A stretch of 64,000 bases of DNA from Patescibacteria group bacterium (GTDB lineage Bacteria > Patescibacteriota > Microgenomatia > UBA8517), in contig DASVCV010000012.1 in NCBI GenBank assembly GCA_036381415.1, positions 10,717 to 74,716 of the forward strand. The letters are read 5' to 3'. Positions within the stretch are counted from its first letter, which is position 1; each line of letters starts with the position of its first letter. The position numbers and the translations under genes are program-made. Under the pieces are notes generated by a model. The model had not been told where the DNA came from, did no database searches, and worked only from the letters and a program-made list of their open reading frames with translations. Shown piece after piece: positions 1,856 through 59,634 of the stretch.

Positions 1856-1909
1856 TGGCTAAATGATATCATAAATAAATTTACTCCTTGAGAGCAAAAC
1901 AGTAGAGTT

Positions 1910-4886: not shown

Positions 4887-4932
4887 TTCGGGTCCATATT
4901 ATATACTTACCAATTAGAAGTCAACTGTAAAT
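4887..4932. promoter_or_regulatory. Short divergent intergenic region (probable bidirectional promoter)
   Basis: 46 bp of AT-rich sequence between the divergently oriented 2400-4886 (-) and 4933-5946 (+) genes; it is the only place transcription of both could start. Confidence 0.4.
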
Positions 4933-15489: not shown

Positions 15490-15497
15490 ATCCGTTT

Positions 15498-23127: not shown

Positions 23128-23135
23128 TCCCATTA

Positions 23136-26819: not shown

Positions 26820-26835
26820 AAATTCTAAACATGTC

Positions 26836-28614: not shown

Positions 28615-28616
28615 CT

Positions 28617-38686: not shown

Positions 38687-40155
38687 TTAATACGCTCCTC
38701 TACATTAACATCATGATATTTGTCGCTTGCTACTACAACCCCTAAATCCTTCTCTGCCTTCTTTTTCCATTCATCTAGTCTGTACCCTGCATCCGGATCT
38801 CTCTCCCATAAATCAAACATAACTCTCTCAGTACTTTTGCTAGGCAAATATCCATATTTACTTTGACCATACCACAAAAATACATAATCCCAAGGTTCAT
38901 CCTTAAAATATGGAATTGTATAAATCCAAAGTCCAAATGGCTTGCCTTCCGCTTTTGTGTAAACAAAGTCCACAGCCTTCTTTCTATCCTCCAATGTAAT
39001 TAAGCTATTTGTTCCAATAGGTATAAGTGCATGTGAAGGTTCACTAAAAAACTTCAAATCATTTGAAATATTAAATTTTGCAAATAAAAATAAAATTATA
39101 ATAGCTGGTAATATAAACATTGGTTTTTTAATAAAGTAAGAAAAAGACCCTGCAGTAAAAAGCACAACAAGCGGGAGTATTCCTAAATAGAAAAAGTCAG
39201 CAGTTCCTCTTTTATAAAAAAGAAGCCCAACTAAAGGAATAACAAAAATTAAAACTAAAAATCTTATTCCTTTTTCTTTCTTCCTTAAAAGAAGAATTAC
39301 TCCTACAACTGTTGACCCAATCACAACTCCAGTAAATAAATTATTCCCATATGAGAAAAAATTAACAATCTCTCTAGAGAGCACTCCCAAACTATCTCCA
39401 ACTTTAGAAGAAATCCCCAACCCATTAGTACCAAAAACCATTTTTACAATACTTTTAGTAACCAAAAACGAATGCCTTAAATCAAAAAGAAATAATGGAA
39501 TGCTTGGGACTAAAAATGTTCCAACTGAAATACTAAATATCTTTTTGTTTTCCAAAAAATAATTTCTTTGTCTAAAAAATAAAACTGCCATTAGCGGTAC
39601 AAAGAAAAACCCAATAGCTCCATTAAGCTGTATTATTATTCCTGCAGTTAATGTAGCAAGAGGCCATAAATAATTTTTCTTCTCCATTTCAATCTTTACC
39701 AAAAAGAAGTAGAAAAGAATAGCAAAAAAAGAAATAGGTGTTACATTTGAAACCCATCTTGAGTAGCTAATAGTAAGTAAGGAAAAACCCCAGATAATAG
39801 CTGCAATTAATCCTGCTAAATCAGACTTAAAAAGTTTCTTTGCAGTTTTAAAAAGAAAAAATATGCCTACTACATCAAGAATTACCATAAACATGCTCAC
39901 TCCAACTGGATCCCCTCTAAATAGTGCATAAACAGGTGCCAAAAAGTAATAAAAGAATGCTCCATGAAACACCCCTTCAACATCAGTTGGATGTCCTAAA
40001 AGAACAAAATGATGGTCATGCCATATATTCCAAATTCCTAGTGCATGAAGCCCTTGATCATAGTGAAAAAGAAGATCAGTATCTATTCTATAAAGCCTAA
40101 GAATTGCTGAAGCAGTAATTACTAGAATAAGTAAGATTTTAACTACCCTATTCAT
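38683..40155 (-). CDS. PMT-like GT-C membrane glycosyltransferase, subfamily B (B1)
   Basis: YDQGLHALGIWNIWHDHHFVLLGHPT..GAFFYY resembles the PMT DE../HPPLG loop. The track start at 40227 is TTG; the ATG at 40155 gives MNRVVKILL. Confidence 0.6.
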   Translation of the reverse strand: MNRVVKILLILVITASAILRLYRIDTDLLFHYDQGLHALGIWNIWHDHHFVLLGHPTDVEGVFHGAFFYYFLAPVYALFRGDPVGVSMFMVILDVVGIFFLFKTAKKLFKSDLAGLIAAIIWGFSLLTISYSRWVSNVTPISFFAILFYFFLVKIEMEKKNYLWPLATLTAGIIIQLNGAIGFFFVPLMAVLFFRQRNYFLENKKIFSISVGTFLVPSIPLFLFDLRHSFLVTKSIVKMVFGTNGLGISSKVGDSLGVLSREIVNFFSYGNNLFTGVVIGSTVVGVILLLRKKEKGIRFLVLIFVIPLVGLLFYKRGTADFFYLGILPLVVLFTAGSFSYFIKKPMFILPAIIILFLFAKFNISNDLKFFSEPSHALIPIGTNSLITLEDRKKAVDFVYTKAEGKPFGLWIYTIPYFKDEPWDYVFLWYGQSKYGYLPSKSTERVMFDLWERDPDAGYRLDEWKKKAEKDLGVVVASDKYHDVNVEERIK

Positions 40156-41071
40156 TTCTAAAGCTTCCCTTCCCAAACTTGCCTCCGTAAAAGTCCGACA
40201 CTCCTCTCTTCTGCCACTTCCTTCCAACCAGCATAAACTTAATACTCTCTCTTATAAGTGCCACTCTTGCCCTAATAGGTGCATACTTCATTCCAAACAT
40301 AAGTCTATTTCTAGTTATAAAATAATCATTTAAATTGCTTCCAATTCCTGAGGACTGTGACACTTTATGCCAAACAATTGCTTTTGGTGCATATTTTACC
40401 TTCCATCCTTTTTTCTTTAATCTTAATGACAAATCAGCATCTTCTAAATACAAAAAATACTTTTCATCAAACATTCCAACTTCTCTAATTGCCTGTGAAG
40501 ATAAAAACATACATGCTCCTGTTGCAAATCCAGTATTTGAAATATTTTGAAACTGCCCGCTGTCAACTTCATCCACTCCTCTATTTTCTCCATACACATT
40601 CTTCCAATCAATTTTTCCACCTGCATACCAAACCACTTTCCCTAACTCATTTTTCTTATACCTGTCTTTATGAAATTCAAATCCTTCAGCAAAATAAATC
40701 TTTGGACTAACTGCCCCAACCTTTTCTTTCTTTGCCACCTTCAAAAGTTCTGTTATTAAATTTTTATCAACAATTGTGTCATTGTTAAGAATCATTACAT
40801 AATCAGCTCCACTTTCTAATGCATACTTAATGCCTACATTATTTCCACCAGCAAATCCCAGATTAGTAGTTGTAGTAACCAGTCTAAAATCAATTTCGCG
40901 AAACACAAGCTTCCTTAATTTTTCTACTGAATCATCAGTGGAGCCGTTATCTACAACTATCACTCCAAGCCCACAATCTTTCACATTTAATTTTTTGATG
41001 CTTTCAAGACATGCGAGAGTATCATCTATTCCATTCCAGTTAAGTATTATTATGAAGACTTTTGGTAGCAT
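40148..41071 (-). CDS. GT2 family glycosyltransferase
   Basis: VFIIILNWNGIDDT..VVDNGSTDDS..ILNNDT. Confidence 0.8.
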   Translation of the reverse strand: MLPKVFIIILNWNGIDDTLACLESIKKLNVKDCGLGVIVVDNGSTDDSVEKLRKLVFREIDFRLVTTTTNLGFAGGNNVGIKYALESGADYVMILNNDTIVDKNLITELLKVAKKEKVGAVSPKIYFAEGFEFHKDRYKKNELGKVVWYAGGKIDWKNVYGENRGVDEVDSGQFQNISNTGFATGACMFLSSQAIREVGMFDEKYFLYLEDADLSLRLKKKGWKVKYAPKAIVWHKVSQSSGIGSNLNDYFITRNRLMFGMKYAPIRARVALIRESIKFMLVGRKWQKRGVSDFYGGKFGKGSFRNE

Positions 41072-41076
41072 GAATA

Positions 41077-41979
41077 TTATCTAAGCTTAAACTTCCTCTT
41101 AAATTTGTTTATTACTCCACCTTCATTTTTTACTAGTGCGTCTGCTTGCCAGTAATTAACTTCAGATTGTGATTCATTAATAGCTCCAATTACTTCATGG
41201 ACGCTTATTTTCTTCTCTTCAAACTGTTCCTTCTGCCAAATCTTTAAATAGACAACCAATTCTGAAAATCCTTGTAATAGTGATAAAGATAATCCGTGTA
41301 GTCCATCTTTATATCCCTCACCTGCAAAATACCTGCTTACAAATTCAGCAGTTGGTTTAGATATTAAGTCCTTCCACTCAAATTTATAATCCTTTGCCTT
41401 AAGATCAGCCTGTACTGAAGTATATCTATTCATTCTTGATATATACTGTTCTATAGATTCATAGTGGTGATGAACTATTGCAAATTCCTCTTTATCACCT
41501 AAATCAATTCCTCTCCCCTCAGTAGTAGGCACCCCATGAATAATCTCATTCCAAAACACTTTTCCATTCTTAAAAAAGCGGATATTATAATCAGGCCACC
41601 ATCTAGCTCTTGTTACCCACTTTCCAAATACCACATTTTTCCTAGGAATCCTTACATAATCAGCTTCATTGTTATTAACAATCTCTTTAAGCCTCTCACT
41701 TAAGCTATGAGGAACCTCCTCATCAGGATCTAAAATTAAAAGCCAGTTGCCTTCTTCTGCTTTAGATATTCCAAAGTTCCTTACAGGCTCAACATAATTG
41801 ACTAAATCATGCTTAAAAACCCTAGCTCCATACTTTTTAGCAACAGCTGAAATTTTAGACTCCCCGCTCATATCAACAATTACAATTTCACCCACCAAAC
41901 CCTTAATTGAAGCTAAAGCCTGGGGTAAGTACTTTTCCTCTCCAGCTACAGTTGTAATAATGGCTGATACGTTTTTCAC
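41077..41979 (-). CDS. GT2 family glycosyltransferase
   Basis: VSAIITTVAGEEKYL..LDPDE; GTG start; related to 11266-12141 and 37922-38686. Confidence 0.7.
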   Translation of the reverse strand: MKNVSAIITTVAGEEKYLPQALASIKGLVGEIVIVDMSGESKISAVAKKYGARVFKHDLVNYVEPVRNFGISKAEEGNWLLILDPDEEVPHSLSERLKEIVNNNEADYVRIPRKNVVFGKWVTRARWWPDYNIRFFKNGKVFWNEIIHGVPTTEGRGIDLGDKEEFAIVHHHYESIEQYISRMNRYTSVQADLKAKDYKFEWKDLISKPTAEFVSRYFAGEGYKDGLHGLSLSLLQGFSELVVYLKIWQKEQFEEKKISVHEVIGAINESQSEVNYWQADALVKNEGGVINKFKRKFKLR

Positions 41980-41983
41980 TATA

Positions 41984-43735
41984 CTATTTTATCACTTTAT
42001 AGATGATCACCTCTGAATTTTCAAAAATATTGTCTAGTCCCAAACCTTTCTCATTTAGATTTATGTTTTGAGCCTTAACCAGATAAATATATGTAATATT
42101 ATTATTACTTAAAAACTTCACAGCTTCACCCCGGTCTAAAGTTTCAAAAAACTTCGCCACAACATCTCTTCTTTCTTTCCAATCAAATCCCATAATATCC
42201 AAATTCCCATCGCTTCCATCATCTTCCAAAAATACCTGCTTATTAGACAATGCGGCTACATAGCTTGTTGACGCATACAAATAGAGTGGCCTTGGAGGAT
42301 TATTTATTGCTCTATCTGCCGCCTCTTTATCAAATGGAAATGTCAGGACCACACCATCTTCTTGTTTTGAAAGAAAACTTAATGCCGATAGTTCATCTAT
42401 AGAAACCTTTGCCGGTGGACGACCAGGTATGTAGTTGTTAACCAAAGTCGACAGAGACGTAGGAACAGTAAAAAGCACAATCAAAACCGAAAGAAAAATA
42501 ACCAAACTTCTTCTATTTTTCTTGCTAAATAAATCTCCAATAAATATTCCACCCAAAACTCCTGCAAAAACTAAGGAATAATAAAAAAACTGTATGGTAT
42601 TCCAAGCTGTGGACTTTTGAAGAAATAAGGTTGGAATTGCTACTCCACCAAAAATAACAACTATAAAAAACACATCAAAAGAATCTAAGCTTTTCAGCCT
42701 TTTAACTATCTTGTTTGCCACATAAACGGACCCTAGCAACCTACTACTCATATTTCCAATCCAAAAAATTACAAAAGCAAACAGATAGGCCAGTATAAAT
42801 TTACTAAGGACACCTTGGCTTTTATAACTAGCCATAGCTTCAGCAAGTTTTGGCCAATTTAACCTGTCATAACTTGCAACCATAGACTCCAAAAACCAAA
42901 ACGGCTGAAATATAAAAGGAAAAGTAGAGTTTCTACTAAAAATAGCAAAAACAATTAAAGATACTGCTGTTGAACCTACAAACAACTTAATAAAGTTGGT
43001 TTTTTTCTCCCTAAACAATTCATACAATCCTGCCACAAAAAGCCCACCGAGTACCAATATCCCCGCATATGCCTTAATCTCAAATAGTGAACCAAATAAG
43101 AATATTCCAAACAAATAGTTTAAAAGCGTAAATTTAGTTTTGATTTTCCAAATCAAGATCAATCCTAAAAAAATAACAAGTACAGAAAGTGCAAGAGGCG
43201 GGTTTACTAGTGTTGAAACGGCCTGCTGTCCCCAAAAAGTAGATTCACCTCCAAAATTTTTATCTCTCAAAAAAGTTATTATCCACCCAAGATCTCCACC
43301 AAAGTAAACAAAAAAAATCGCCCAAAGCGCTTGCGCACTCCCTTTCCATTTTTTAACAAAAACATAAACAAACGCCCCTATCAGGATAGCCATAACTGGA
43401 GGGGCAATTTGAAAATAAAGTTGAAAAGCAGGGATACTAGTTAGTCTATGAACTACTGCAATCAATAAATCAAAACCAATATGATAATTTTGTATCATAT
43501 GTCCTGCAAATACAGGCATCTCCAAACTTCCTTTAGAAAGAGAATTAATTAAAGCCAAATGCCAAATTCCATCATGTCCGTTTGCTCCCCAAAATCCCAT
43601 CCCAAATGAATAAATTACTCCGCTTTTTACCATGGTAATACACCACGAAATAGATCCTAATACTATTAGAAGTAAGGCTTTTTTATCCTTTGCTAAACTA
43701 CCTTGAGAAAATTTCTTTAAAGCTCCTTTTAGCAT
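41984..43735 (-). CDS. Polytopic membrane protein with a C-terminal extracytoplasmic domain (possible GT-C or polymerase/ligase-like); unknown family
   Basis: About 13 TM helices followed by a soluble tail of about 150 aa. The track start at 43741 is TTG; the ATG at 43735 gives MLKGALKKF. Confidence 0.45.
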   Translation of the reverse strand: MLKGALKKFSQGSLAKDKKALLLIVLGSISWCITMVKSGVIYSFGMGFWGANGHDGIWHLALINSLSKGSLEMPVFAGHMIQNYHIGFDLLIAVVHRLTSIPAFQLYFQIAPPVMAILIGAFVYVFVKKWKGSAQALWAIFFVYFGGDLGWIITFLRDKNFGGESTFWGQQAVSTLVNPPLALSVLVIFLGLILIWKIKTKFTLLNYLFGIFLFGSLFEIKAYAGILVLGGLFVAGLYELFREKKTNFIKLFVGSTAVSLIVFAIFSRNSTFPFIFQPFWFLESMVASYDRLNWPKLAEAMASYKSQGVLSKFILAYLFAFVIFWIGNMSSRLLGSVYVANKIVKRLKSLDSFDVFFIVVIFGGVAIPTLFLQKSTAWNTIQFFYYSLVFAGVLGGIFIGDLFSKKNRRSLVIFLSVLIVLFTVPTSLSTLVNNYIPGRPPAKVSIDELSALSFLSKQEDGVVLTFPFDKEAADRAINNPPRPLYLYASTSYVAALSNKQVFLEDDGSDGNLDIMGFDWKERRDVVAKFFETLDRGEAVKFLSNNNITYIYLVKAQNINLNEKGLGLDNIFENSEVIIYKVIK

Positions 43736-45188
43736 CTTCAATTAAAGAGGCGCCTATTATTGCAACCATCAATACTCCATATACAACAACTCCAACACTT
43801 GCCAAAATCCAAATGGAGTAGAAATTTACAGGAAGTGCTCCTCTTAAAATAATAAGAACAGTTCCCATAAGAAGTGTTGCAATACCTGGCTTGACTACAG
43901 CATCGTTAACTGAAAAGTTAACATATTTCTTTGCAATAAATATTGCTACAACCGAAGAAGCTCCAACCAAAGCATATCCTAATGCTGCTCCATCTACTCC
44001 ATATAACTTGGCTAGTACTGGAATGAAAACCCAAGTAAGAACTGTCCACATAATCATTAAATAAAATGTAATTCTGATTTTTCCAATAGCATTTAATAGA
44101 TTAGTAAGTTGGGTAGTAGCTGCTGCAAACATGAAATTGATAGAAACAAAAGTTAGTGGCACAAGTGCAGGAAGCCACTGATTATATCTTGGAATAACTT
44201 CTACTATTAATGGAGCAAGAATAACTAGTCCAACCAAACTTGGAAAAACAAGAAAACAGATAAAAAAGATAGATCTTGTCACACTTCGCTCTAAATGTCC
44301 CTTAGCATCCTGCATTCTAGAAAATGCTGGAAACGTAACTTTTGTAACTGTATCCATAAAAAATGTTAGTGGATATCTTGCAAACTTCTGAGCAGTACCT
44401 AAAAACCCAATACCAACAGGCCCCAATATTCCACCCAACACCAAAGTCATCCCGTCATCTTTTAAAGCAGCAAGCAGAGTATTTATTTGGTATGGAATTC
44501 CAAACTTAAATAACCCTGACAAAGTCTTTTTTGAAAATGCAATTCCAGGCTTCCAAGGTTGAAGTATATATATTGTTACTAATCCAACAACATCTCGAAT
44601 TATTACAGCAATAGTAAAACTTTTAATTCCATAACCCCTTATGGCCAAAAATACCAAGATCACATAATAAATTACTTGCTCAAGAATTTGTGGGAAAGTA
44701 AGTTTCACAAATTCCAGCTTTCTCTCCAAGAGTATTGACGGAATGCTTTTAAGTGAAGATAGTAAGAATGAAAAGGCCAAAGCATATAACAGAACTACCC
44801 CATCTTGGCTTAAATGATATTGCCTTGTAAAAAATGGACTAAGAAGAACTACTATTCCAATAATAGCTAAAACCAAAACCTGCTGGACAAAAAACGTTGT
44901 TCTTAAATCAGTCTCAGTTAATTTTTCTTTCTTTTGAATTAAAGCCGCAGCCAGCCCTATATCAGAAAAATAATTTAGGAAATTAATAACAGCATTCAGT
45001 ATAAAAAACACACCTAACTCAGTTGGGGCTAAATAGGCCCACATAAGACCTGAAGCTACAAATGCAACTACCTGTAGAAAAAAAGTTCTCCCAGTAAGAA
45101 CCACCACACCACGCACCGAGCGTGCTTTAACAGTCTCAAGAGTAATCTCACTAGTTGGGTCTAAATGCTCTCTTTCTAATTCATCCAC
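43698..45188 (-). CDS. MOP-superfamily oligosaccharide flippase (Wzx-like)
   Basis: 496 aa; about 12-14 TM helices; apparent GTG start. Confidence 0.6.
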   Translation of the reverse strand: MDELEREHLDPTSEITLETVKARSVRGVVVLTGRTFFLQVVAFVASGLMWAYLAPTELGVFFILNAVINFLNYFSDIGLAAALIQKKEKLTETDLRTTFFVQQVLVLAIIGIVVLLSPFFTRQYHLSQDGVVLLYALAFSFLLSSLKSIPSILLERKLEFVKLTFPQILEQVIYYVILVFLAIRGYGIKSFTIAVIIRDVVGLVTIYILQPWKPGIAFSKKTLSGLFKFGIPYQINTLLAALKDDGMTLVLGGILGPVGIGFLGTAQKFARYPLTFFMDTVTKVTFPAFSRMQDAKGHLERSVTRSIFFICFLVFPSLVGLVILAPLIVEVIPRYNQWLPALVPLTFVSINFMFAAATTQLTNLLNAIGKIRITFYLMIMWTVLTWVFIPVLAKLYGVDGAALGYALVGASSVVAIFIAKKYVNFSVNDAVVKPGIATLLMGTVLIILRGALPVNFYSIWILASVGVVVYGVLMVAIIGASLIEDAKRSFKEIFSR

Positions 45189-45203
45189 CCCTAAATTGTA
45201 GCA

Positions 45204-46718
45204 TTAAAATACCTTTACTGTGAGCTCAAAAACATCTTTATTTTTATATGCAGCCATTGGCACTCCACCCAAATCTTCATAATAAACCATTATGTTTTTC
45301 CCCTTATATAATAGATTAATTGCATCTTGTCCATTAAGAATAAAAAATGCCTGTTTTGAACTACTTCCCCACTCACTAGAAATAAAAGGATAGTCAGGAT
45401 CATTCCTTAGATAAAGAATTGAACCATAGGGTAATTCTGGATACTTTGCTTGTATTTGACTGATAATCTGCTTTGCATAATCTCCCCTGGTCTTTGCCCA
45501 ATAAGTAGATTGTGCAAGTTGTGATGTAGATAGTGAAAGGCAGATAAGACCAGCAACGAACAGCATAACTAAAATCAATCCAATCTTTGTTTTTTTCTTT
45601 AGTAAATCATATGCACTAAATACAATATAAAAAACCACTCCCCAAAAGGCAGGAAGTGAAACTGCAAGGTAATAAGCAGATTTGTGAAGGGGAAGTAAGG
45701 CTAAAGGTAAAATACTTGCAGGAAACCAAATAAGAAGTAAAAGAAAGTTTCTATTAGATAATAATTTTATTTTCTTTACTACTATATAAAAAATAGAAGT
45801 AGCAATTACTATAACTGAATAAAAAAATGTAGGAAATATTACTCTGTAATAGTTGCTCCAATATTTTAAAAGATTTGGATTTAGTTTTAAGCCAGACCCA
45901 ACAAAATCAATTAAGCTTTCAGGAAGTCCAACTGCCCACACAATATACCAAGAAAATGTATTTGCAATTGTCTTCAAATTAAAAACAGGATGGTACTGTA
46001 CTTCTCCCTCTGAAAATCCAATTACTTTTACTTCTAAATAAAGATAGATTAAAGAAAAACCAAGTGGAATCAAATATCCTCTTACTGATTTTAATATATT
46101 GTTTATATTAATTTTATCCCAACTACTTACATCCAAAAATAGAATCACAGGAATAAGTGCAATTGAAGTCTCATGACTAGCAAGTGCCAAAAAGAAAGTT
46201 AGAAAAGAAATTAATTTCCATTTTAGTATTCTTTTTTCTAAATATTTTAAATACAAAAGTACTGTTAGAAGTACAAAAAAAGTAGCTCCCAGTGCTTGTA
46301 CTCCTCCTGCAAGATAATAAAGAATACTCACATTAGCTCCGCTTATTCCAACCATCAAAGAAACTAAATAAGACAACGATTTTCTTTTAAATAGTTTGTT
46401 CATTAAAAGATATGTAAGTGCTATGTTTGAAAAAAGAAGTACAAACTGCAAAATCCTAAAAGGAAGTGCGTTTAGTCCAAACAAATTGTAAAAGTTTAAA
46501 TAGAGAAGCTCTCTAAATATTGGTCTATAAAAAGCAATTCCACGCTCGCTAAAAGGATGAAATCCAAATAAATAAACAAGTCCTTTACTTCCAGCTTCCT
46601 GTGCAACTCTAAAATGGAAAAAATCATCCCCGCTAAAGTAAGTAGTAAGAACAGGCAGATAAAAAAGAAGAGTAACTAAAAATATGGGAAGTAGTATTAA
46701 GAAAGTCTTCTTGTACAT
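45204..46718 (-). CDS. Polytopic membrane protein, putative GT-C (unknown family)
   Basis: 504 aa; N-terminal loop FSGDDFFHFRVAQEAG has acidic residues after TM1; many TM helices. Confidence 0.4.
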   Translation of the reverse strand: MYKKTFLILLPIFLVTLLFYLPVLTTYFSGDDFFHFRVAQEAGSKGLVYLFGFHPFSERGIAFYRPIFRELLYLNFYNLFGLNALPFRILQFVLLFSNIALTYLLMNKLFKRKSLSYLVSLMVGISGANVSILYYLAGGVQALGATFFVLLTVLLYLKYLEKRILKWKLISFLTFFLALASHETSIALIPVILFLDVSSWDKININNILKSVRGYLIPLGFSLIYLYLEVKVIGFSEGEVQYHPVFNLKTIANTFSWYIVWAVGLPESLIDFVGSGLKLNPNLLKYWSNYYRVIFPTFFYSVIVIATSIFYIVVKKIKLLSNRNFLLLLIWFPASILPLALLPLHKSAYYLAVSLPAFWGVVFYIVFSAYDLLKKKTKIGLILVMLFVAGLICLSLSTSQLAQSTYWAKTRGDYAKQIISQIQAKYPELPYGSILYLRNDPDYPFISSEWGSSSKQAFFILNGQDAINLLYKGKNIMVYYEDLGGVPMAAYKNKDVFELTVKVF

Positions 46719-49711
46719 TTGATATAAGAAATAACATTAGCCAAAGACAAAATCTTAATAAGCAAAAACCCATTATCTGTAAATGGCCTTCCTATTTCAT
46801 CAGAACTCCTTCTATAGAAAGCCCAGATTAGATTTAAAAATAAAGTTATATTTATAAGTACCAAGTAAACAGCCAGCTTTGGTTTAGTAAAAATAAGTAT
46901 AACTAAAGGAGCAAATGCTGCAAAGAAGTATCTCTCAAGCATTCCAGTCATAAATAGAAAACTTCCTAATCCAATCGTAAATATTCCTACAACAACTGAC
47001 AAAAGATTGTTCTTTTGTTTTGAAATCCACTTAAATGTAAACACATTTATAACAAGATAGAATAATAAGCCCCACAAGTTGGCTGGAATTAAAAAGTATC
47101 TTGAAAAATCAAAATCACGGTCAATTTTTGCAAAAATAGTCCAGAAATTAAATGCTGAGTTGGAAATTTTTTGTATTCCTTTTGACCCGGGTAAAATATT
47201 ATTAAAAATATATTTAGTACTAAAACCAAATAAATCCCCATTCGCAAAAGGATTTGTGGTTATATAAAAAATAACAACAGATATGACAAGGCCAACCAAT
47301 ATTTGTTTCCTACTCACCTTAAATCTCCAAAGCAAAAACAAAAACAAAGGTCCAAAAACAATCCAGGTTGGCTTTATATAGATACTAATAAATAAAAGGG
47401 GGATTGCAAGCCATGCTTTTTTTGATGCCAATAACACAAATGATCCTAATCCAAAAATAGCAATTACACTCTCAGTTTGTCCCCAAACTCCAGCAAGAAA
47501 TATTGTTACAGGATTTAAAAGATAAAAAGATGCGGCTAAAGCTGCTTTTTTAGAATCTTTTGTTAAATCTTTAACTACTTTAAAAATAAGGGCACCTAAT
47601 CCAACATCAGCTAGTATTACAGGAAGTTTTAAAAGTAAATTGTATCCACTCGAGTAGAAATCAATTATAAAAGAAGACGGGGGAATCTTAATTTTATTGT
47701 GTAACTGAGAAAGCACATACTTTGAGTCAAACATTTTACCCAAATATCCATACATTAAAGAAGATAGAGGGGGATAGGTTGGTCTTGAAAACTCCCAACT
47801 AGTATCCGTATAGAAATTCTTTGTACCTATCTTTTCAAACTTTGCTCCCCACTCTCCAACTGCATTTAAATCACCATTAATATTAAAATCTCCATAGGGA
47901 AGTAGACTATACCTAATAATCACTCCCAAAACTACTGCTCCTGCAAAAACTAATCTAACTGAAAATTTTAAGCTTTTTTTTTTACTCTTATTCTTACCCT
48001 TAAGTTTATTTTCTCTGATATTTCTAACAATTAATATCGCAAGTATTACCCAAGTAACAAGTGAAATTATATTCCCTAAGGTTCTTGGCAATGTATCATA
48101 TAGTCTTACATACACTTGATGCACCCCTTTTGGAACATTTACATATATTCTTCCCCATTTCTCTTCCTTTGCAGTCTTAACTTGTGCTTCAGTTCCATCT
48201 ATAAATACTCTCCAATTTGGAAACTGAAATATATTAATTCTAACTAATCCGTAATCAGTTACTACATTTGCATTAAATGTAGCCCAATTAGTACTTTCCT
48301 TTGGACTTGTAATTTCGCCTTTGCCATCTATAAACTCAGCCAAAATCCTCTGTGGACTATTTGGCGCCATTTCAGCAGTAATTGGAAGGTAATCATAAAT
48401 GCCAGCTGTCTGCTGTAAATCCCATGCAAGACCGCTAAACTTTTCATGATCAGTTAGAGGTCCTAAATGTCCATGTTCTGGTAGGAAATAATTCCAGTTC
48501 CAAACAATAAGTCCAACTGCCAAAATACCTGCAATATATATTCCTATTTTTTTAGGCAAAAGTGTAGGAAGTATTCCTGCCAAAAAAGAGAAGCAAAAAA
48601 TAACAATTGTTAAAAATCTCCAAGGGAACTGGACATAGTTTAAAGTCTTAAACATCTGCCAGATAGGCGTTGATTTTGAGTGGATCATAAAAGCCGCAAA
48701 CCAACCTCCAACAAACAAAAGTAAAACCATAAGTGTCACATCATCTATTTTTCTTTTCTTAAGTGTTCTTAAACCAACAATGGCAAGCACTACTAAAGAA
48801 AGTATCCAGTGAAGCTGTCCAATCTGGAATGGCATTCCATCATTTGGCCCCCAAATAGAAGGACCATATCCCCAGAAGCGTGAAGTCAAAATCTGCCCCA
48901 CAGTTGCAAAATGAGCAGTGTACTCATAATAACCCTGAATAAGGCTGTTAGCATGTGTATATTTCTGCTCAACTACTACAGGAATTGTAAAAAATGCCAC
49001 CAAACCAAATGCCAAAATTCCGCTAACTATAAGAGGAAGTATTTTTCTCCAACCATTTCTTCTAACAACCCAAAGTAAACACCAGAGAGAAAACAAAGGT
49101 GCAAATATCATAGCCATTAAATTGTGCGACGTAAGAAGTCCTGCCCAAGCAAGACCAAGACCCACAATCCATCCAAACCTCTTACCCTTTGCAGTTATAA
49201 GTTTATATGAAGTCCAAAAAATTAATGGAAACCAAGTTAGTGCCCATGCTTCATTCATAGCTCCCCTTACATAGATATCAACTGAATGGTATGGAGCCCA
49301 AACATAAAAAATAGCTGCAATAATTCCGCCATATTTGCCAAAAAATTCTTTTCCCAAAAAGTACATTGTCACACTTGATGTGACAAAAGCTAAAATAAAC
49401 ACAAGCTTTATAGTATCTACAAAAGATACTCCAAATAGTCTAATCGCCTCCCCTATTAAATAGGGAAGGGGTGGGTAAAAATTAAATAAAGGAAAACCAA
49501 ATCCATATCCCATATCAGGAACCCATCTGCATGGAATCTGAAGAGACAAAAAGCACTTCTCCATTTCAAGTTGCCTCATCATCTGAAGATCATCATGCAT
49601 GTTGAAATATCCAGATCCAATAAGTCCTTTGCCAGCTAATATCCCCACAAAGATAACGATAAGAAGCGGTACAAAACCAGGATTAGAAATAATTTTTCGA
49701 ATAAACTTCAT
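46697..49711 (-). CDS. 1004-aa fusion of two GT-C-like membrane modules ('PTPS-related'-like N-terminal module plus DUF2029-like C-terminal module)
   Basis: N-terminus LQIPCRWVPDMGYGFGFPLFNFY matches 17173-18669; C-terminus KLPVILADVGLGALIFK..NPVTIFLAGVWGQTE matches 23136-24401; the two modules are joined by a Lys-rich linker. Confidence 0.6.
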   Translation of the reverse strand: MKFIRKIISNPGFVPLLIVIFVGILAGKGLIGSGYFNMHDDLQMMRQLEMEKCFLSLQIPCRWVPDMGYGFGFPLFNFYPPLPYLIGEAIRLFGVSFVDTIKLVFILAFVTSSVTMYFLGKEFFGKYGGIIAAIFYVWAPYHSVDIYVRGAMNEAWALTWFPLIFWTSYKLITAKGKRFGWIVGLGLAWAGLLTSHNLMAMIFAPLFSLWCLLWVVRRNGWRKILPLIVSGILAFGLVAFFTIPVVVEQKYTHANSLIQGYYEYTAHFATVGQILTSRFWGYGPSIWGPNDGMPFQIGQLHWILSLVVLAIVGLRTLKKRKIDDVTLMVLLLFVGGWFAAFMIHSKSTPIWQMFKTLNYVQFPWRFLTIVIFCFSFLAGILPTLLPKKIGIYIAGILAVGLIVWNWNYFLPEHGHLGPLTDHEKFSGLAWDLQQTAGIYDYLPITAEMAPNSPQRILAEFIDGKGEITSPKESTNWATFNANVVTDYGLVRINIFQFPNWRVFIDGTEAQVKTAKEEKWGRIYVNVPKGVHQVYVRLYDTLPRTLGNIISLVTWVILAILIVRNIRENKLKGKNKSKKKSLKFSVRLVFAGAVVLGVIIRYSLLPYGDFNINGDLNAVGEWGAKFEKIGTKNFYTDTSWEFSRPTYPPLSSLMYGYLGKMFDSKYVLSQLHNKIKIPPSSFIIDFYSSGYNLLLKLPVILADVGLGALIFKVVKDLTKDSKKAALAASFYLLNPVTIFLAGVWGQTESVIAIFGLGSFVLLASKKAWLAIPLLFISIYIKPTWIVFGPLFLFLLWRFKVSRKQILVGLVISVVIFYITTNPFANGDLFGFSTKYIFNNILPGSKGIQKISNSAFNFWTIFAKIDRDFDFSRYFLIPANLWGLLFYLVINVFTFKWISKQKNNLLSVVVGIFTIGLGSFLFMTGMLERYFFAAFAPLVILIFTKPKLAVYLVLINITLFLNLIWAFYRRSSDEIGRPFTDNGFLLIKILSLANVISYIKCTRRLS
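47974..47983. repeat. T10 homopolymer (A10 on the coding strand) inside 46697-49711, encoding KKK in the interdomain linker
   Basis: Read directly: agc followed by ten T then actc; it is the longest homopolymer I noticed in the window. Confidence 0.85.
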
Positions 49712-49738
49712 GTTAATTATATTATCACGTTGAATGCT

Positions 49739-51316
49739 CTACTTCCCAGAGTCAACCAATTCAAATAAATAAAGTGTCTCTCTAGGCCCTAAGTTTTTAT
49801 ATTCCTTTGCATTTTTATCTAGTCTAAATGCTTTAGGATAAGCTGCTATTAACCTTAGTCCTTTTGACTCAGGATTTGTAAACTTCAATCTGTCATTATT
49901 AACAACCAAATAAGTAAAGTTTCCACTCCTTTTTGAATTAACTAAGTTTGAAGGAACTTTATCTAAATCAAGTCCCACTCCAACAACTGTAAGATTAGGA
50001 ATCTCATTTAAATAAATTTGAAGTCCATCAGGCAAAGTACCAAATAATCCTTCAGTCCCAACAACTATTCCTTTGCCAGGATTTTGAGAGTGAACTCCTT
50101 TTATATAATCACTCACCTCTTTAATCCCAGTCCCGCTTGTCCACTCTTCTAAATACCCACTTCTTTCACTAGAAGGAATTGGTGCTACCTCTATATTAGT
50201 TGCAAATAAGTAATCAATTCTTAATGAATTTATAACTAGGAATATAAAAACAATTGTAAGTATCTTTGTATAGATTTTGTTCCTTTCCAAAAAGGCACTA
50301 GCCAAAAGCATATAAAAAGGAGGAAGAGTATATAAAATATATCTAGCTGTAAAAACCTTTCCAAATTCGCTTGTTGCAAGAAGTGGAACTATAAACCAGG
50401 CAAAAATTAATACCACTTCCCATTTATGTTTCCTTACTGTTGTAAAAATTCCTGGAAAGAAAAAGAGTGTAAGAAGTCCTGGCCCCCAAGCCATAAACCA
50501 ATCAGTGAATACTTCTTTAAAGTGAAATGTAAATGGATCCCACCAGCCACTCCCAAACAAATGGCTTATTGGATAAACATAGTCCATATTCCTTATTGTT
50601 ATAAATTGAGAGTTAGGACCCAATCTTAAAATTCCATACATTCCATATCCAATAACATAGGTAACCAACAATAACCCAACTAAATGAAATACATGAGTTA
50701 GAACATCCATTCTCTTCTTTGGCCACTTTGAAACGACAAGCGTTAAAGGAAGCAGCACTGCAAAAAATAATGCTGGAGATTTAGTAAGAAGTGCTCCACC
50801 TAAACTAAACCCGGTTAGCATTGCCATATCCAATCTTTTTGTTTTGGCAGTAATAATTCCCAATAGTAGTGTCCACATACCAAACATAGTTAAAAGTGAA
50901 TCCACAAGTGCCATCCTGTCAAAAAAGAAAGAGAAAGGAACAATGGCTGTCATAAAAGAAGCTATTAAAGCCACCTTTTTTGATTTAAACAATGAATATG
51001 AAATTCCAAATGTTGCAGCAATTGTTCCAATTCCACTAAATACCGAAATAACTCTTCCCAAAAACAAAGGATCAAAACGTTTATTCATCAAAAACATAAG
51101 TATCCACATATAAAAGGGCTGTTTGCCGTCTGACAAAGGCAAAAACCTTAATGTATTATCAGCTGCCATTACTTGAGACCATCTTATGTAAATTGCTTCA
51201 TCTGCAAACACCGGCATGGAAGTTAAGTGGTATATCCTAATTAGAAATGCAAAAAGAAGTATTAAAAAAAGAATTATCCCTGTCTTTTTCCAATTAATCA
51301 AAAACTTTTTAACCAT
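49739..51316 (-). CDS. PMT_2/ArnT-like GT-C membrane glycosyltransferase
   Basis: First loop MPVFADEAIYIRWSQ (DE motif); 12 or more TM helices. Two ATG starts are possible (51346 MHLAG.. or 51316 MVKKFL..). Confidence 0.6.
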   Translation of the reverse strand: MVKKFLINWKKTGIILFLILLFAFLIRIYHLTSMPVFADEAIYIRWSQVMAADNTLRFLPLSDGKQPFYMWILMFLMNKRFDPLFLGRVISVFSGIGTIAATFGISYSLFKSKKVALIASFMTAIVPFSFFFDRMALVDSLLTMFGMWTLLLGIITAKTKRLDMAMLTGFSLGGALLTKSPALFFAVLLPLTLVVSKWPKKRMDVLTHVFHLVGLLLVTYVIGYGMYGILRLGPNSQFITIRNMDYVYPISHLFGSGWWDPFTFHFKEVFTDWFMAWGPGLLTLFFFPGIFTTVRKHKWEVVLIFAWFIVPLLATSEFGKVFTARYILYTLPPFYMLLASAFLERNKIYTKILTIVFIFLVINSLRIDYLFATNIEVAPIPSSERSGYLEEWTSGTGIKEVSDYIKGVHSQNPGKGIVVGTEGLFGTLPDGLQIYLNEIPNLTVVGVGLDLDKVPSNLVNSKRSGNFTYLVVNNDRLKFTNPESKGLRLIAAYPKAFRLDKNAKEYKNLGPRETLYLFELVDSGK

Positions 51317-51317
51317 A

Positions 51318-52067
51318 TTAAACTTGATATTTCCCGCTAAGTGCATTTATTCTTACCTTTATTAATCCCTTAAACCCATCCCAGGAGTCTTTAATTGGAC
51401 TCACTTCTTTTCTTAATCCCTTTTCATGCCAATCAACTGGCACTTCAGCAACTTTTAATCCTAGCTTTCTTGCAATATATAAAATCTCAAGATCAAAACC
51501 AGCATTCACTGCCGCCCCTTTAATGCGTGCCGTATCATTAAAAACTTTCATTCTCTTAAATATTTCATGAGCTTTTTCCTTCTTAAAAGCTTTAAATCCA
51601 CACTGAGTATCTTTATATGGAAGATTAAGAATTAATTTTCTTAAAATCATAAATCCGTAAGCCATTAACTTTCTTACCATTGGATAACCTTCTCTTCCAT
51701 GCCTTGATCCAATTACTCCATCATATCCACTCTCAAATTTAGGAAAGAACTTCTCAATTTCTCTCAAAGGTGTTGCCTGGTCCATATCAGAAAATAAAAT
51801 TATTTCTCCTTCTGCTTTTAACATCCCGGCAATTACAGTTCCTGCTTTTCCTCTGTGTGGTTCTTCATAGAAAGTAAAATTTTTGTGGCTTTTGGCATAG
51901 CTGGAAAGAAGAGTTGGTGTTTCATCAGTTGATCCATCATCAACCAAAAGTACATTCCAAATATATTTTTGCTTCTTTAAATACTCATTAACCTCATCCA
52001 AAACTCCATTCTGGATATTTTTAACTTCATTGTATGCTGGAATTACTACTGATAATTTGTACTTCAT
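51318..52067 (-). CDS. GT2 polyprenol-phosphate sugar synthase (Dpm1/GtrB-like)
   Basis: LSVVIPAYNEVKNI..LVDDGSTDET..FSDMDQ..DTQCGFKAFKKE, typical of dolichyl/undecaprenyl-phosphate hexosyltransferases. Confidence 0.75.
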   Translation of the reverse strand: MKYKLSVVIPAYNEVKNIQNGVLDEVNEYLKKQKYIWNVLLVDDGSTDETPTLLSSYAKSHKNFTFYEEPHRGKAGTVIAGMLKAEGEIILFSDMDQATPLREIEKFFPKFESGYDGVIGSRHGREGYPMVRKLMAYGFMILRKLILNLPYKDTQCGFKAFKKEKAHEIFKRMKVFNDTARIKGAAVNAGFDLEILYIARKLGLKVAEVPVDWHEKGLRKEVSPIKDSWDGFKGLIKVRINALSGKYQV

Positions 52068-52072
52068 ATATC

Positions 52073-53623
52073 TTATTTGTCTATATTAAATCTAACCCTT
52101 CTTTGCACACTCACCCCTCCAAATTTTACCTCTTCTTGAATACTTCCGATACCAGCTTGTCTAACCATCCAAGATTGAAGCCTTTCGGGATGGGGTGGAT
52201 CAGTCTCAAATACTGTATAAAGTAAACTAACGTGTTTATCTAGCTTCATGTTGCATAAATCCACTCCACACCTTTTAGTTGCCTGCCAAACAAATAAGTA
52301 GTTATAAGAATAAGGAATAACTGGCGGAACATAGCTATCAAAATTAAACTCCCTTCCTCCAGCATCTTTAAAAGCCCAATCAACTGCTTGAAGTTCATTA
52401 CCCATTGCAACAGTAGTAGGACCATCAACACCAGAAACTACATAATTTCTATCTAGGAGTAAATTCTGCTGGAAAAAGACAATCAAAAATAATGCTGGGA
52501 TTACAAATCTTGCCCTGCCTTGCACAAAATTCACAACCAATATTGAGAATACTAAAACAAATATAAAGTAATACCCTGTAAAGTAGTAATCATAGACATT
52601 CCCAAAATTTCCCTGGAAGAAAAACATACCAATTAAAGGAGAAACAAGTAAAAGTAAAATCACTTTAAAATATTTGTTAGCCCAAAGACTTCTCCAGTTA
52701 ATTAGAAGTGATGCAAACATAAAAGCAGTTGCAACCAATTTTCCTTTTTCACCACTTGGATTAATTTTAGACATAAATACATCCTGATAAAAAGGAACTC
52801 TAATCTTTACCATTTCCCAGAAAGAAACCTTAAAAGATTTGTCTGTAAATAAAAACTTGGCAATTGCAGTTCTTAAAATACCCTGATGAATAAGATCAAA
52901 AATAATTTGTGGGACAAATGCAAAAAAAATTAGAAAAATGCTTGCAATCATTATTTTCTTACTACCAAGATTGCGTCTTTGCCAGATTGCAAAAATAACT
53001 ACAGCAGGAAAGTAAAAAACTTCAGCTGCACTTCCAAACTGCATTGCCATACCAATTAAAAACCCAATAGCAAGCCAAGCCCACTTTTTTCCTTCCATCG
53101 CCAAAAACATACTAAAAATAAGTAACATGCTAATTAAAAGCATTGGAGTGGGATTTGATAGCCAACGGGAGGCCAAAAGTAAATAATATGATAATCCTGC
53201 AATTGCTGCAGCAAATACACCAGTTGACCTATCTGCCACTTTAGAAGCAATAATGTAAACAAATACAACAGCTACAAGTGTTGTTAACGAAAGAAAAACC
53301 GCTGGAAATCCAGGATCTCCACCACCAATTAAATAAAAAGGGGCAATTAGCCAGTAATACCAAGGTCCACGAAATATTCCAGCTATCCCAGTAGTAGGTC
53401 CAATTAAAAACATTTTTCCCTTGTGCCAGAAATCCCAAATTACCTGCGCATCTCTTCCTTGGTCATAATAGAACCCTAGAAGCTGGTCTACTCTATAAAC
53501 CCTAAAAAATAAGGCAGCAATTAAAACTATAAAAAGTAAAATATAGATAACATGATGATCTTTTACTTCTCTTTTAAATCTTCCCATCCACTCTTTTATG
53601 TTCCCTTTTATTTTCTTAATCAT
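52073..53623 (-). CDS. PMT-like GT-C membrane glycosyltransferase, subfamily B (B2)
   Basis: YDQGRDAQVIWDFWHKGKMFLIGPTTGIAGIFRGPWYYW parallels B1 and B3. Confidence 0.6.
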   Translation of the reverse strand: MIKKIKGNIKEWMGRFKREVKDHHVIYILLFIVLIAALFFRVYRVDQLLGFYYDQGRDAQVIWDFWHKGKMFLIGPTTGIAGIFRGPWYYWLIAPFYLIGGGDPGFPAVFLSLTTLVAVVFVYIIASKVADRSTGVFAAAIAGLSYYLLLASRWLSNPTPMLLISMLLIFSMFLAMEGKKWAWLAIGFLIGMAMQFGSAAEVFYFPAVVIFAIWQRRNLGSKKIMIASIFLIFFAFVPQIIFDLIHQGILRTAIAKFLFTDKSFKVSFWEMVKIRVPFYQDVFMSKINPSGEKGKLVATAFMFASLLINWRSLWANKYFKVILLLLVSPLIGMFFFQGNFGNVYDYYFTGYYFIFVLVFSILVVNFVQGRARFVIPALFLIVFFQQNLLLDRNYVVSGVDGPTTVAMGNELQAVDWAFKDAGGREFNFDSYVPPVIPYSYNYLFVWQATKRCGVDLCNMKLDKHVSLLYTVFETDPPHPERLQSWMVRQAGIGSIQEEVKFGGVSVQRRVRFNIDK

Positions 53624-54618
53624 ATTTTTCCTTCTTTCTCCTTCATAAGCTCTTTTGCAGTATCTAACACTTTCTCTACAGCTTTTTCAAATGGCAAATC
53701 TAAAATCTTTGCAGCAGCTGCCCACCTGTGTCCACCTCCACCAAGCTTTGCTGCAATTTTAGACACATCCACTCCGGTCCTAGATCTAAAACTTACATCC
53801 AATCTTTTATCTTCTCCAATCATCACAATTCCAATCTTGCTTCCAGACACACTTTGAAATATTAAATCTGCAATTTCACTTTTAGCTCCAACTGGTCTTT
53901 CATATTTTTTGTATATCTCAAACTTCGTAGCCGACCAAGCAATTCCACTCTCCTCATCTATTTTCAAATTATTTAGAACCTCAACCCAAAACTTAATTGT
54001 TAATAATTCATAACTTTGAAACAGATTTAAAATTATTGTTTCTCTATCAGCTCTTTTTGTCATTAAATCAGCAACCACTACAAAAGTACTCTCCTTAGTT
54101 TCTCTAAACCTTAACCCTCCTGTATCTCCCATCACACCTGTTAATAGTGAAGTAGAAAGATTCGCATCCATGTTTATTCCCCAACCTCTAAAAAGCCAAA
54201 ATAAAATCTCGCAGTTTGATGGAGAACTCTCATCAACCATATTAATTTTCCCAAATTTTTCATTTGTTTCATGGTGATCAATCACAATAATAGGAATTGA
54301 AGGGATGCTGACTTTTTTATTTCCAGTAACTCTTTCCCAGCTTGCAGAATCTAAAACTACAAAAAGATCCCAAGCAGTAAAATCAAACTTTTCATAGTCT
54401 ACTATCTCTATATCTTTCGTTTCTTTTAAAAAAGAAAGATTTTTAGGAATTGGACTTGGGCTTACTATTTTTGCTTCCTTTCCTAACCCCTTCACAAAAT
54501 GCAAAAACGAAACTGCACTTCCAACACTGTCTGCATCACAATTAGCATGACAATTAATAAGAACTTTTTCTGATTTTTTTACTTCATCCAAAATTTCCTG
54601 TGAGTGAGGATAATTCAT
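53620..54618 (-). CDS. nrnA: DHH-family phosphoesterase (NrnA-like nanoRNase/pAp phosphatase)
   Basis: DHH motif VIDHHETN and DHHA1 GGGGHRWAAAAK; ATGA overlap on the upstream side and an adjacent stop/start on the downstream side. Confidence 0.7.
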   Translation of the reverse strand: MNYPHSQEILDEVKKSEKVLINCHANCDADSVGSAVSFLHFVKGLGKEAKIVSPSPIPKNLSFLKETKDIEIVDYEKFDFTAWDLFVVLDSASWERVTGNKKVSIPSIPIIVIDHHETNEKFGKINMVDESSPSNCEILFWLFRGWGINMDANLSTSLLTGVMGDTGGLRFRETKESTFVVVADLMTKRADRETIILNLFQSYELLTIKFWVEVLNNLKIDEESGIAWSATKFEIYKKYERPVGAKSEIADLIFQSVSGSKIGIVMIGEDKRLDVSFRSRTGVDVSKIAAKLGGGGHRWAAAAKILDLPFEKAVEKVLDTAKELMKEKEGKI

Positions 54619-54619
54619 T

Positions 54620-56173
54620 TCACTTATTGTGGCCTAACTTATAAACAATAACTCCTGATACTTCCCATTGGTCAAGTATTTTGCTCCAGCCAAAGTTGGC
54701 AATCCATGCAGAAGGATCATGGGTTGGGTCACACTTTTCCTTAGGTTTCTCACAAACCACAAATAACTGATCAGTAACTGTGTAGGCCACTGCATTTGGG
54801 TCAGTATCTACTACCTTTGCTCCCCATACCTGGAAAAAGTACTGATACACATCTCTATTATTTCTTTCAGAAATAGTTGCAATATTAAACCTTTGTCCAT
54901 TTGCCCTATCCCTTATAAAAGCTGCAATATCTTGTGATCTTTTAAGCTGATTGTTTGGTCCAACATTCAAAGCACTATTTGAAAAATTAGCATAAGCTAA
55001 AATCAAAAACCCAATTACAAGTAATATTTTTACAATATTATTTTTATATAGCTTCTGATAAATAGCTCCAGTAAGAATAAATGGAACAGCAAAAACAAAT
55101 CCGTAATAGTGATCAAAAATATTTTGTTTATACAATCCAAATCCAAGTAGTGCAAATCCCATCCACACAATAAGAAGATAAAATGCACTCCCCAATTTTT
55201 TTCTTTTTGTAAGAACAAGAAAAGCGCAAATTCCTGTTACAATAATTGTCGTCCACTTCCCAACCTCAACATCCCTCCCTGCTATTAGTCTTGCATTTAT
55301 ATCTTCAAATCTTGGATACATCTTTGGAATTGCATTCCAGGGTTTAATTGAAACTGTATCTTGTCTTACAGTAAAGAACTGCTTTATTGCATTAAAGTTT
55401 TGCCAATTATGTCTAATATCAAAGATAAGAAGGGGAGACATCAAAATTGCAAAAGCAGCTACCCCCCAAATAGTATTCATAATTAATTTTCTTTTCTCTT
55501 TTTTATCCTTCTTGGCCTGCCAAAAAGTAAGAAGCCACAAAATTCCCATTACAGGAATAAGCGCCAGTCCTAAGTAGTGTGACTGCACAACAAATGCAAA
55601 AGAAATCCCAGCTAGAATTAAAAGTCTTAATTCTTTCTTACTCCACACTCTCCACATTAAATAAATTGAAGCCAATGCAAAAAAAGGCATGATGTTGGGG
55701 TTCCAAGAAGATCTTGAATAAATTACAACTGTAGGACTGATAGCATAAAAAAATGCTGCAAAAAAAGCTGCAATGCCTCCAAACCACTCTCTTGCTACCC
55801 ACCAAACCAAAAATATAGTTAAAACTCCAAGCAAAGCAACCATTACAGCTGGCCCAACAGGCGAGTAGTTGGCAATTAAAAGTGGAATTGCCATCATGTA
55901 GTAGTAAAGAGGACCTAAATACATATTTCCAATTGAAGTTCCAGGTCCAATTAATGGAGGATGCGCCTCTACCCAAAGACGCCTTACTATAATCACATCT
56001 CTTCCTTCATCTCCCAAAAAAGTCATGTATTGATCAATTTTGTAAAGTCTTAGAAATGCACCAACCAAAATAATTAAAACTAATAAAACTGTTTCCTTTG
56101 GGTGATCTTTAACCCATCCCTTAGTTTTTTTAAATATCTGATTTATCCTTTTACCTAATTCAATTTTTGCCAT
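54620..56173 (-). CDS. PMT-like GT-C membrane glycosyltransferase, subfamily B (B3)
   Basis: GDEGRDVIIVRRLWVEAHPPLIGPGTSIGNMYLGPLYYY; HPPL as in eukaryotic PMT loop 1. Confidence 0.6.
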   Translation of the reverse strand: MAKIELGKRINQIFKKTKGWVKDHPKETVLLVLIILVGAFLRLYKIDQYMTFLGDEGRDVIIVRRLWVEAHPPLIGPGTSIGNMYLGPLYYYMMAIPLLIANYSPVGPAVMVALLGVLTIFLVWWVAREWFGGIAAFFAAFFYAISPTVVIYSRSSWNPNIMPFFALASIYLMWRVWSKKELRLLILAGISFAFVVQSHYLGLALIPVMGILWLLTFWQAKKDKKEKRKLIMNTIWGVAAFAILMSPLLIFDIRHNWQNFNAIKQFFTVRQDTVSIKPWNAIPKMYPRFEDINARLIAGRDVEVGKWTTIIVTGICAFLVLTKRKKLGSAFYLLIVWMGFALLGFGLYKQNIFDHYYGFVFAVPFILTGAIYQKLYKNNIVKILLVIGFLILAYANFSNSALNVGPNNQLKRSQDIAAFIRDRANGQRFNIATISERNNRDVYQYFFQVWGAKVVDTDPNAVAYTVTDQLFVVCEKPKEKCDPTHDPSAWIANFGWSKILDQWEVSGVIVYKLGHNK

Positions 56174-59633: not shown

Positions 59634-59634
59634 T

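Follow-up and report, generated by a model that had tools for sequence, protein, structure and literature searches.

A candidate fusion of two GT-C glycosyltransferase modules across a poly-A run in a Patescibacteria glycan locus

We analyzed a 64,000-nucleotide stretch of DNA from a Patescibacteria group bacterium (contig DASVCV010000012.1, positions 10,717 to 74,716 of the forward strand, hereafter the window) and studied an open reading frame (ORF) at 46697-49711 on its minus strand, which starts with ATG and encodes 1004 amino acids (aa) in a reading frame without interruption. This ORF joins two membrane modules, called here N and C, whose orthologues are neighbouring genes in related bacteria. 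It seems moderately probable that the ORF is a real and recent fusion of this coupled gene pair, giving a double GT-C enzyme that would use lipid-linked sugar donors for two steps in building one extracytoplasmic glycan.

Two membrane modules in one reading frame

The ORF, its parts and its two paralogues in the window are as follows.

46697-49711, minus strand: fused ORF of 1004 aa (N-module, linker and C-module); unbroken, and in synteny with two ORFs in the related loci L001 and L002
48023-49711, minus strand: N-module, aa 1-563, predicted GT-C fold
47951-48022, minus strand: linker, aa 564-587 (NIRENKLKGKNKSKKKSLKFSVRL), predicted to be cytoplasmic from hydropathy and charge count
47974-47983, minus strand: A10 homopolymer (T10 on the plus strand) at the join, covering codons K577-K579 and the first base of S580
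46697-47950, minus strand: C-module, aa 588-1004 and the stop codon, predicted compact GT-C fold
17173-18669, minus strand: stand-alone paralogue of the N-module, 498 aa, 36% identity, with weak PF09586 and PF10131 matches under the cutoffs
23136-24401, minus strand: stand-alone paralogue of the C-module, 421 aa, 30% identity, E 2e-38

A sequence-only reading of the window had proposed that this ORF fuses two GT-C-like modules, each with a stand-alone homologue in the window. Its coordinates were exact, and the homology of both halves to the stand-alone genes was borne out far beyond chance by BLASTP, aa 34-451 matching the product of 17173-18669 (E 1e-83) and aa 593-933 that of 23136-24401. 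When the 49 window ORFs of at least 150 aa were compared all against all by BLASTP, each half had this one paralogue and none further at E<1e-5. The motifs that the same reading had quoted (LQIPCRW, GYG, PLFNFY, KLP.ILAD, NP and WGQT) fall on invariant or near-invariant columns of the respective family alignments. Structure comparison, described below, agreed that the ORF joins two different GT-C-fold modules. The statement that neither family is well characterized was fair, the N-module passing the threshold of PF10131 only and the C-module having no Pfam match.

The AlphaFold model of the N-module, built from a small family alignment (predicted local distance difference test, pLDDT, 80; predicted template modelling score, pTM, 0.85), comprises a transmembrane (TM) bundle (aa 1-405), a beta-sandwich (aa 458-537), predicted to be extracytoplasmic, and a final TM helix from about aa 541. 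Its core superposed on solved GT-C enzymes, and the closest structural neighbours were Pmt4, AftA, AglB and STT3; by sequence, a profile of the N family gave no useful match in the PDB. PF10131 (PTPS_related) scored 31.9 bits on the fusion, over its gathering threshold of 26.4 bits, and 20.0 bits on the paralogue 17173-18669, which fails it, while PF09586 (YfhO) stayed under its threshold of 28.5 bits on both proteins (18.1 and 21.4 bits, respectively). In the first outer loop of the module, D41, E49, C53, C61, R62, W63 and D66 are invariant. The acidic D41, E49 and D66 are conserved in all 17 sequences, including the paralogue 17173-18669, and, judged from this alignment, may be catalytic. 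The model and the profile matches indicate that the N-module belongs to the PF10131/YfhO-like glycosyltransferases of the GT-C fold. In L001, the N orthologue (P0001, L001 6001-7767) carries an 11-residue insert, SLASPAGKLIT, after the equivalent of window aa 172.

The C-module was modelled with AlphaFold2 (AF2) as an all-helical, compact membrane protein (pLDDT 80, pTM 0.85, again from a small family alignment). A Foldseek search returned ALG6 first (6snh, E 4.6e-6, query-normalized TM-score, TMq, 0.66), followed by ALG3, PIG-U, PimE and GPI-MT-I; ALG3, PimE and GPI-MT-I matched at E<1e-3, and these structural matches share 14-18% sequence identity with the module. Its first outer loop contains an invariant G613-D614 (G36-D37 of the module), conserved across 13 sequences, and an invariant W-G, followed downstream by KLP..D, NP, WGQ and ERY. 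A Pfam search at E<1 found no family, GT87 (PF09594) and Alg6_Alg8 (PF03155) included, for the C-module or any of its 12 aligned relatives, and the GT87 and Alg6_Alg8 domains were reached only by the remote C relatives P0258, P0315, P0171 and P0182. Likewise, a C-family profile matched no PDB chain by sequence. Judged from its model, the C-module is a glycosyltransferase with a compact GT-C fold like that of ALG6, ALG3 and PimE. We had considered assigning the two modules to different GT-C subclasses (A and B) and dropped this, since GT-C_A takes in ALG6, ArnT, PglB and PimE alike (PMC12041525). According to the models, both modules have the GT-C fold but belong to separate families.

The two modules are connected by a linker of 24 residues, of which 10 are Lys or Arg and one is acidic, placed after the final helix of N and before the first one of C. 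It derives from the former Lys-rich tail of the N gene and the former Lys-rich head of the C gene. Under the positive-inside rule, basic loops of membrane proteins are cytoplasmic, and the linker is predicted to be cytoplasmic because it is rich in Lys and Arg. This orientation would place the two catalytic loops, like the beta-sandwich, on the outer side of the cell membrane. The final extra helix of the N-module is predicted to bring the chain back to the cytoplasm, which makes a head-to-tail fusion topologically feasible. In all, the fused polypeptide contains about 20 hydrophobic, putatively membrane-spanning segments.

Both modules keep all residues that are invariant in their families, the C-module retaining 36 of 36 invariant columns, and both are under purifying selection (dN/dS, the ratio of nonsynonymous to synonymous substitution rates, of 0.05-0.125 at dS of at least 1). 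For the C-module the ratio was 0.09-0.125 at dS 1-2.9 in every pair, including L001 versus L002. Since C is strongly conserved in L001 and L002, it must be expressed in those lineages too.

A conserved gene pair meeting at a poly-A run

Related loci were collected from metagenome-assembled genomes of Candidatus Woesebacteria and other Patescibacteria. They were surveyed for the split pair, as the sequence-only reading had suggested. In 12 of 12 informative loci, counted as species-representative loci with upstream DNA, the C orthologue is immediately preceded by a same-strand gene of the N family, and so it is in L007-L010. The spacing of the two genes ranges from an 18-nucleotide gap to a 41-nucleotide overlap, and C has an ATG start and a Lys/Arg-rich head in all these loci. 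Separate orthologous N and C genes are present in L007-L010 and L013-L025. The two closest relatives (88% and 78% identity) have a pair of ORFs at the syntenic position, of 588 and 418 aa in L001 and of 582 and 439 aa in L002. The relation is asymmetric, as C orthologues are always preceded by N, whereas N stands without C at the locus in L003-L006 (N orthologues of 66-72% identity). Taken together, these data indicate that N followed by C is a conserved and tightly coupled gene pair, and that the window ORF is that pair joined.

It had been argued from the window alone that finding fused and split forms in one locus links the two families. The link itself stood, being supported by the adjacency of the orthologues, and the argument from the window proved weak. 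The stand-alone paralogues 17173-18669 and 23136-24401 are 4.5 kb apart with three intervening genes, two of them on the opposite strand, and genes of the 23136-24401 type in L026 and L027 do not adjoin N-family genes. The in-window pair was therefore dropped as evidence of linkage: the two split copies are paralogues that do not adjoin each other, and with about 19 GT-C modules in the locus their co-presence says little. That the N and C families are functionally linked is thus supported better by orthologue adjacency than by the in-window paralogues. The same gene order implies that the fusion adds little further evidence of linkage.

Other features of these loci were noted. In L014, L015, L017 and L020-L023 (positions about 1-4950), three tandem N paralogues, with 24-50% identity to the window N-module, precede a single C. 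The C gene and the next PMT_2-like gene (window 45204-47980) are both present in the window, L001 and L002 and both absent from the syntenic L003-L006, which may reflect the joint gain or loss of the two genes. Five records (L015, L018, L019, L021 and L024) are titled "uncultured Gammaproteobacteria bacterium" and carry the same N-C locus as the Woesebacteria and Patescibacteria records; these titles look mislabelled.

The two frames meet in a homopolymer. In the window the junction codons read AGT AAA AAA AAA AGC, and the resulting A10 at 47974-47983 is the sole run of at least 9 bases within the 64 kb. L001, L002 and L012 have A9 at the same place, with the modules in frames one base apart; L012 is a second assembly which confirms the A9 of L002. 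The C frame of L001 and L002 begins inside the A9 run (G-TAA-AAA-AAA-AGT), and one added A would join the frames. The ATG of the C gene is missing only in the clade of the window, L001 and L002. The TTG start called for C in L001 corresponds to TTA in the window and in L002, and the TTG called in L002 sits in a lineage-specific insert. These observations suggest how the fusion could have arisen. N and C are neighbouring genes, a tightly coupled pair in Woesebacteria-type Patescibacteria; the clade formed by the window, L001 and L002 has lost the ATG of C, and its two frames now meet within a run of A's that codes for Lys. Since the window has ten of them, the Lys-rich tail of N reads on into the Lys-rich head of C to give one polypeptide.

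Fused, split or slipped: weighing the explanations

The sequence-only reading had named a frameshift or assembly error as what could create an artificial fusion, and here its check had a divided outcome. A chimeric misassembly was ruled out, gene order around the ORF being identical in L001 and L002. The fused state, in turn, hangs on A10 versus A9, and A9 is what the two closest relatives have. Several facts weigh against a real fusion. It depends on a single base of a 10-base homopolymer, and both nearest relatives show A9 with split frames, one of them confirmed by L012. Searches of collections totalling about 15 billion proteins turned up no N+C fusion, and the exact 1004-aa protein is not on record; the protein of the upstream neighbour is likewise not on record. 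One independent assembly of this strain exists, the Logan contig L030; it matches the window at 100% identity across 1.85 kb but breaks off 82 codons from the end of the ORF and does not cover the junction.

Several searches stand behind this negative result. With the whole ORF as query against 5.8 billion proteins, the best 120 matches were all of about 570-590 aa and covered the N-half only, with up to 88% identity. The C-half retrieved stand-alone proteins of 418-472 aa only, and an exhaustive C-half scan of 1.84 billion representatives gave stand-alone proteins again, together with a few longer ones: P0258, a C-C tandem; P0210 and P0273, GT2 plus C; P0292, C plus PMT; and P0315, C plus a PIG-U-like module. 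P0258 (961 aa) had been a candidate for an independent N+C fusion and was rejected, as both of its modules are of the C type, in tandem. A query that spanned the junction (aa 480-700) gave zero matches and missed even the known N-only relatives, so it was uninformative. Further members of the poly-A clade were looked for with a degenerate DNA pattern for PYGDFNINGD in JGI metagenomes, which gave no match, and by a protein metagenome scan, which gave only relatives of about 30% identity. The N+C combination turned up in none of these searches; fusions of glycosyltransferase modules, GT-C included, are otherwise common.

One explanation is that the window assembly carries a homopolymer error and that the true sequence has A9, two ORFs and C in the -1 frame, which we regard as unlikely. 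The junction being the only run of this length in the window, the A9 of L001, L002 and L012 and the missing record of a fused protein all agree with such an error, as does the fact that removing one A from the window produces an immediate stop (GCT TAA), with N ending in ...NKSKKKA*. Against this, A9 would leave C without an ATG, GTG or conserved TTG start, yet C is strongly conserved, so that the split reading itself needs non-standard expression of C. No other broken genes were seen in the 64 kb. Moreover, long homopolymers are miscalled short more often than long, which would point to errors in the A9 records and not in the window. The miscall may instead be the A9 of the relatives, in which case the window, L001 and L002 would all be fused; this would strengthen the case for a real fusion.

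The conservation of the run also suggests another explanation, in which A9/A10 is a maintained slippery site, acting through transcriptional slippage, -1 ribosomal frameshifting on A-AAA-AAA or heritable phase variation, and yielding both N alone and an N-C fusion. We consider this rather unlikely. An A run of at least 9 bases is kept at the meeting point of the two frames in the window, L001 and L002/L012 despite dS of at least 1, and the C frame of L001 and L002, which begins inside the run without a conserved start, evolves at a dN/dS of about 0.1. The window has no other run of this kind, and long A/T runs are rare across about 300 kb of related loci, where the Lys tails of N-only orthologues use interrupted codons. 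Only 1 of the 12 KKK triplets of the window is encoded by pure AAAAAAAAA, namely the junction triplet, when about 3 are expected from codon usage. The window also has stops shortly after the run in both other frames, and therefore A9 or A11 transcripts would yield N alone. Precedents exist in dnaX of Thermus thermophilus (A9) and mxiE of Shigella, both decoded by slippage, mxiE consisting of two ORFs joined by a one-base slip (PMC1088944). The junction resembles these genes in having A9/A10 where two frames meet, nearby stops in the other frames and, in the A9 relatives, a downstream ORF without its own start; it differs in that the window DNA is itself in frame, and slippage at this site is proposed from the nucleotide sequence.

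On the other side, the pattern is seen in three lineages only, and AAA is the commoner Lys codon of the window (63%), so that we estimate the probability of chance retention at roughly 0.02-0.1. The A9 versus A10 difference was seen only between lineages at dS of about 1 or more. No stable RNA structure was found 3' of the run (z -0.6 to +0.3), though slippage needs none, and C could be expressed in L001 and L002 by TTG initiation or by termination-reinitiation. If the run is a slippery site, its length in the DNA (A9 or A10) would set the default product, and the clade might in this way tune or switch a surface-glycan step, a proposal that we put forward tentatively. We are not aware of earlier reports of such recoding or phase variation, either in Patescibacteria or for a pair of GT-C enzymes.

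Finally, the ORF could be an accidental read-through fusion without function, in which one module, most likely C, is inactive or decaying. The fusion is unique to one genome and C is dispensable in some lineages (L003-L006), as this would predict; but C keeps every invariant column and its low dN/dS in all pairs, and a coherent membrane topology is preserved in the fusion, and we hold this explanation to be very improbable.

The glycan locus and the possible role of the fusion

The window (34% G+C) is almost wholly a glycan-synthesis locus. About 19 GT-C modules are encoded, comprising at least 13 of the PMT/PMT_2 type, one YfhO, two N-type and two C-type modules, along with about 14 GT2 and 3 GT4 glycosyltransferases, two Wzx-like flippases, a GT2-GtrA fusion, sugar-nucleotide epimerases/dehydratases and methyltransferases. 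The neighbours of the fused ORF that matter here are the following.

51318-52067, minus strand: GT2 glycosyltransferase of 249 aa in the same gene string (PF00535, 91 bits); position kept in L001-L006 and L009
49739-51346, minus strand: PMT_2-type GT-C gene directly upstream of the fusion (PF13231, 38.2 bits); position kept in relatives
45204-46718, minus strand: PMT_2-like GT-C gene directly downstream, overlapping the end of the fusion by 22 nucleotides (PF13231, 21.2 bits, under the cutoff); only in the clade of the window, L001 and L002
43698-45188, minus strand: Wzx-like flippase, Polysacc_synt_3 (PF13440, 180 bits)

The flippase lies downstream of N or of the N-C pair in all close relatives, mostly directly, and after one extra gene in L001, L002 and L006; in L007, two opposite-strand genes separate it from the pair. 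The GT2 protein of 51318-52067 is a candidate maker of the lipid-linked sugar donor. Another GT2 protein, at 58464-59654 (minus strand), carries a GtrA/DPMS TM domain (PF00535 and PF04138), the architecture expected of a polyprenyl-phosphate sugar synthase, and is a candidate donor supplier for the many GT-C enzymes of the window.

Further observations concern the rest of the locus. The PMT/PMT_2-type GT-C paralogues, at least 13 in number and 500-600 aa long, lie within 12146-30344 and 38683-56173, with the YfhO gene at 34224-36593, and form an unusually dense array. Membrane proteins of similar size without a Pfam match are encoded at 20285-21592, 24398-26134, 31156-32637 and 41984-43741. 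Another fusion is found in an 828-aa ORF at 2400-4886 (minus strand), where aa 5-342 form an NAD-dependent epimerase/dehydratase, about aa 386-483 a methyltransferase domain and aa 579-708 a GT2 glycosyltransferase. Same-strand ORFs overlap by 80 nucleotides at 26055-26134 (24398-26134 with 26055-26819) and at 40148-40227 (38683-40227 with 40148-41071). Starts called too far upstream are the probable cause, and the second of these pairs has a TTG start. A CAP/SCP-domain protein (63031-63939, minus strand) and a Yip1-domain membrane protein (59635-60195, minus strand) flank the glycan locus beside trmD (60237-60902).

The presence of GT2, flippase and many GT-C genes fits the scheme of three-component extracytoplasmic glycosylation (PMC5836110; PMC11127046). 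YfhO and other GT-C enzymes belong to this scheme, and YfhO of B. subtilis and GtlB of Listeria are described as PF10131-type GT-C enzymes of three-component teichoic-acid glycosylation (PMC5836110). The N-module resembles YfhO and GtlB in passing PF10131, in its weak YfhO match and in its GT-C fold, and the GT2 and flippase genes of the locus would provide the other two components. It differs in staying under the YfhO threshold, in its extra C-terminal membrane helix and in being fused to a second GT-C. We know of no teichoic acids in Patescibacteria. The C-module in turn has its best structural matches in the compact GT-C enzymes ALG6, ALG3, PimE (GT87) and GPI-mannosyltransferase I, a type that goes under the JGI label "Gpi18-like mannosyltransferase", and its invariant first-loop Asp stands at the position of the catalytic base of ALG6 and PimE (PMC12041525). 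It differs from ALG6 and PimE in that neither it nor its 12 relatives have a Pfam match, in having no PDB match by sequence and in the low identity of its structural matches.

If the fusion is real, as we favour, the two modules would perform two steps on one extracytoplasmic surface glycan or glycoconjugate. Their donors would be polyprenyl-phosphate sugars that the neighbouring GT2 enzymes make and that are then carried across the membrane. C may act on or after the product of N, because N occurs without C and never the reverse. The benefit of the fusion would be a fixed 1:1 ratio and proximity of the two activities. The multi-module proteins recovered with the C-half (P0258, P0210, P0273, P0292 and P0315) indicate that the C family is prone to fusions with glycosyltransferases, although none of them joins a PF10131-type module to C.

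The inference of functional linkage from domain fusions, or Rosetta-stone approach, reportedly goes back to Marcotte and Enright in 1999. The window ORF is like such a case in being a composite protein whose parts are separate in other genomes, and unlike it in that the separate genes are already operon neighbours and that the fusion occurs once and depends on one base. Its interpretive weight is small, the family link being already given by gene order and the fusion hanging on one base; for genome scans the lesson is that a fusion call resting on a single homopolymer base is unfit as stand-alone evidence. If the run is a functional site of slippage or phase variation, it would be a new means of setting the ratio of single to double glycosyltransferase. 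If the fusion is real, it would argue on physical grounds that two GT-C enzymes, one PF10131/YfhO-like and the other unclassified and ALG6/PimE-like, act as a unit, and would offer one polypeptide in which two consecutive steps of extracytoplasmic glycosylation could be studied structurally or biochemically in uncultivated bacteria.

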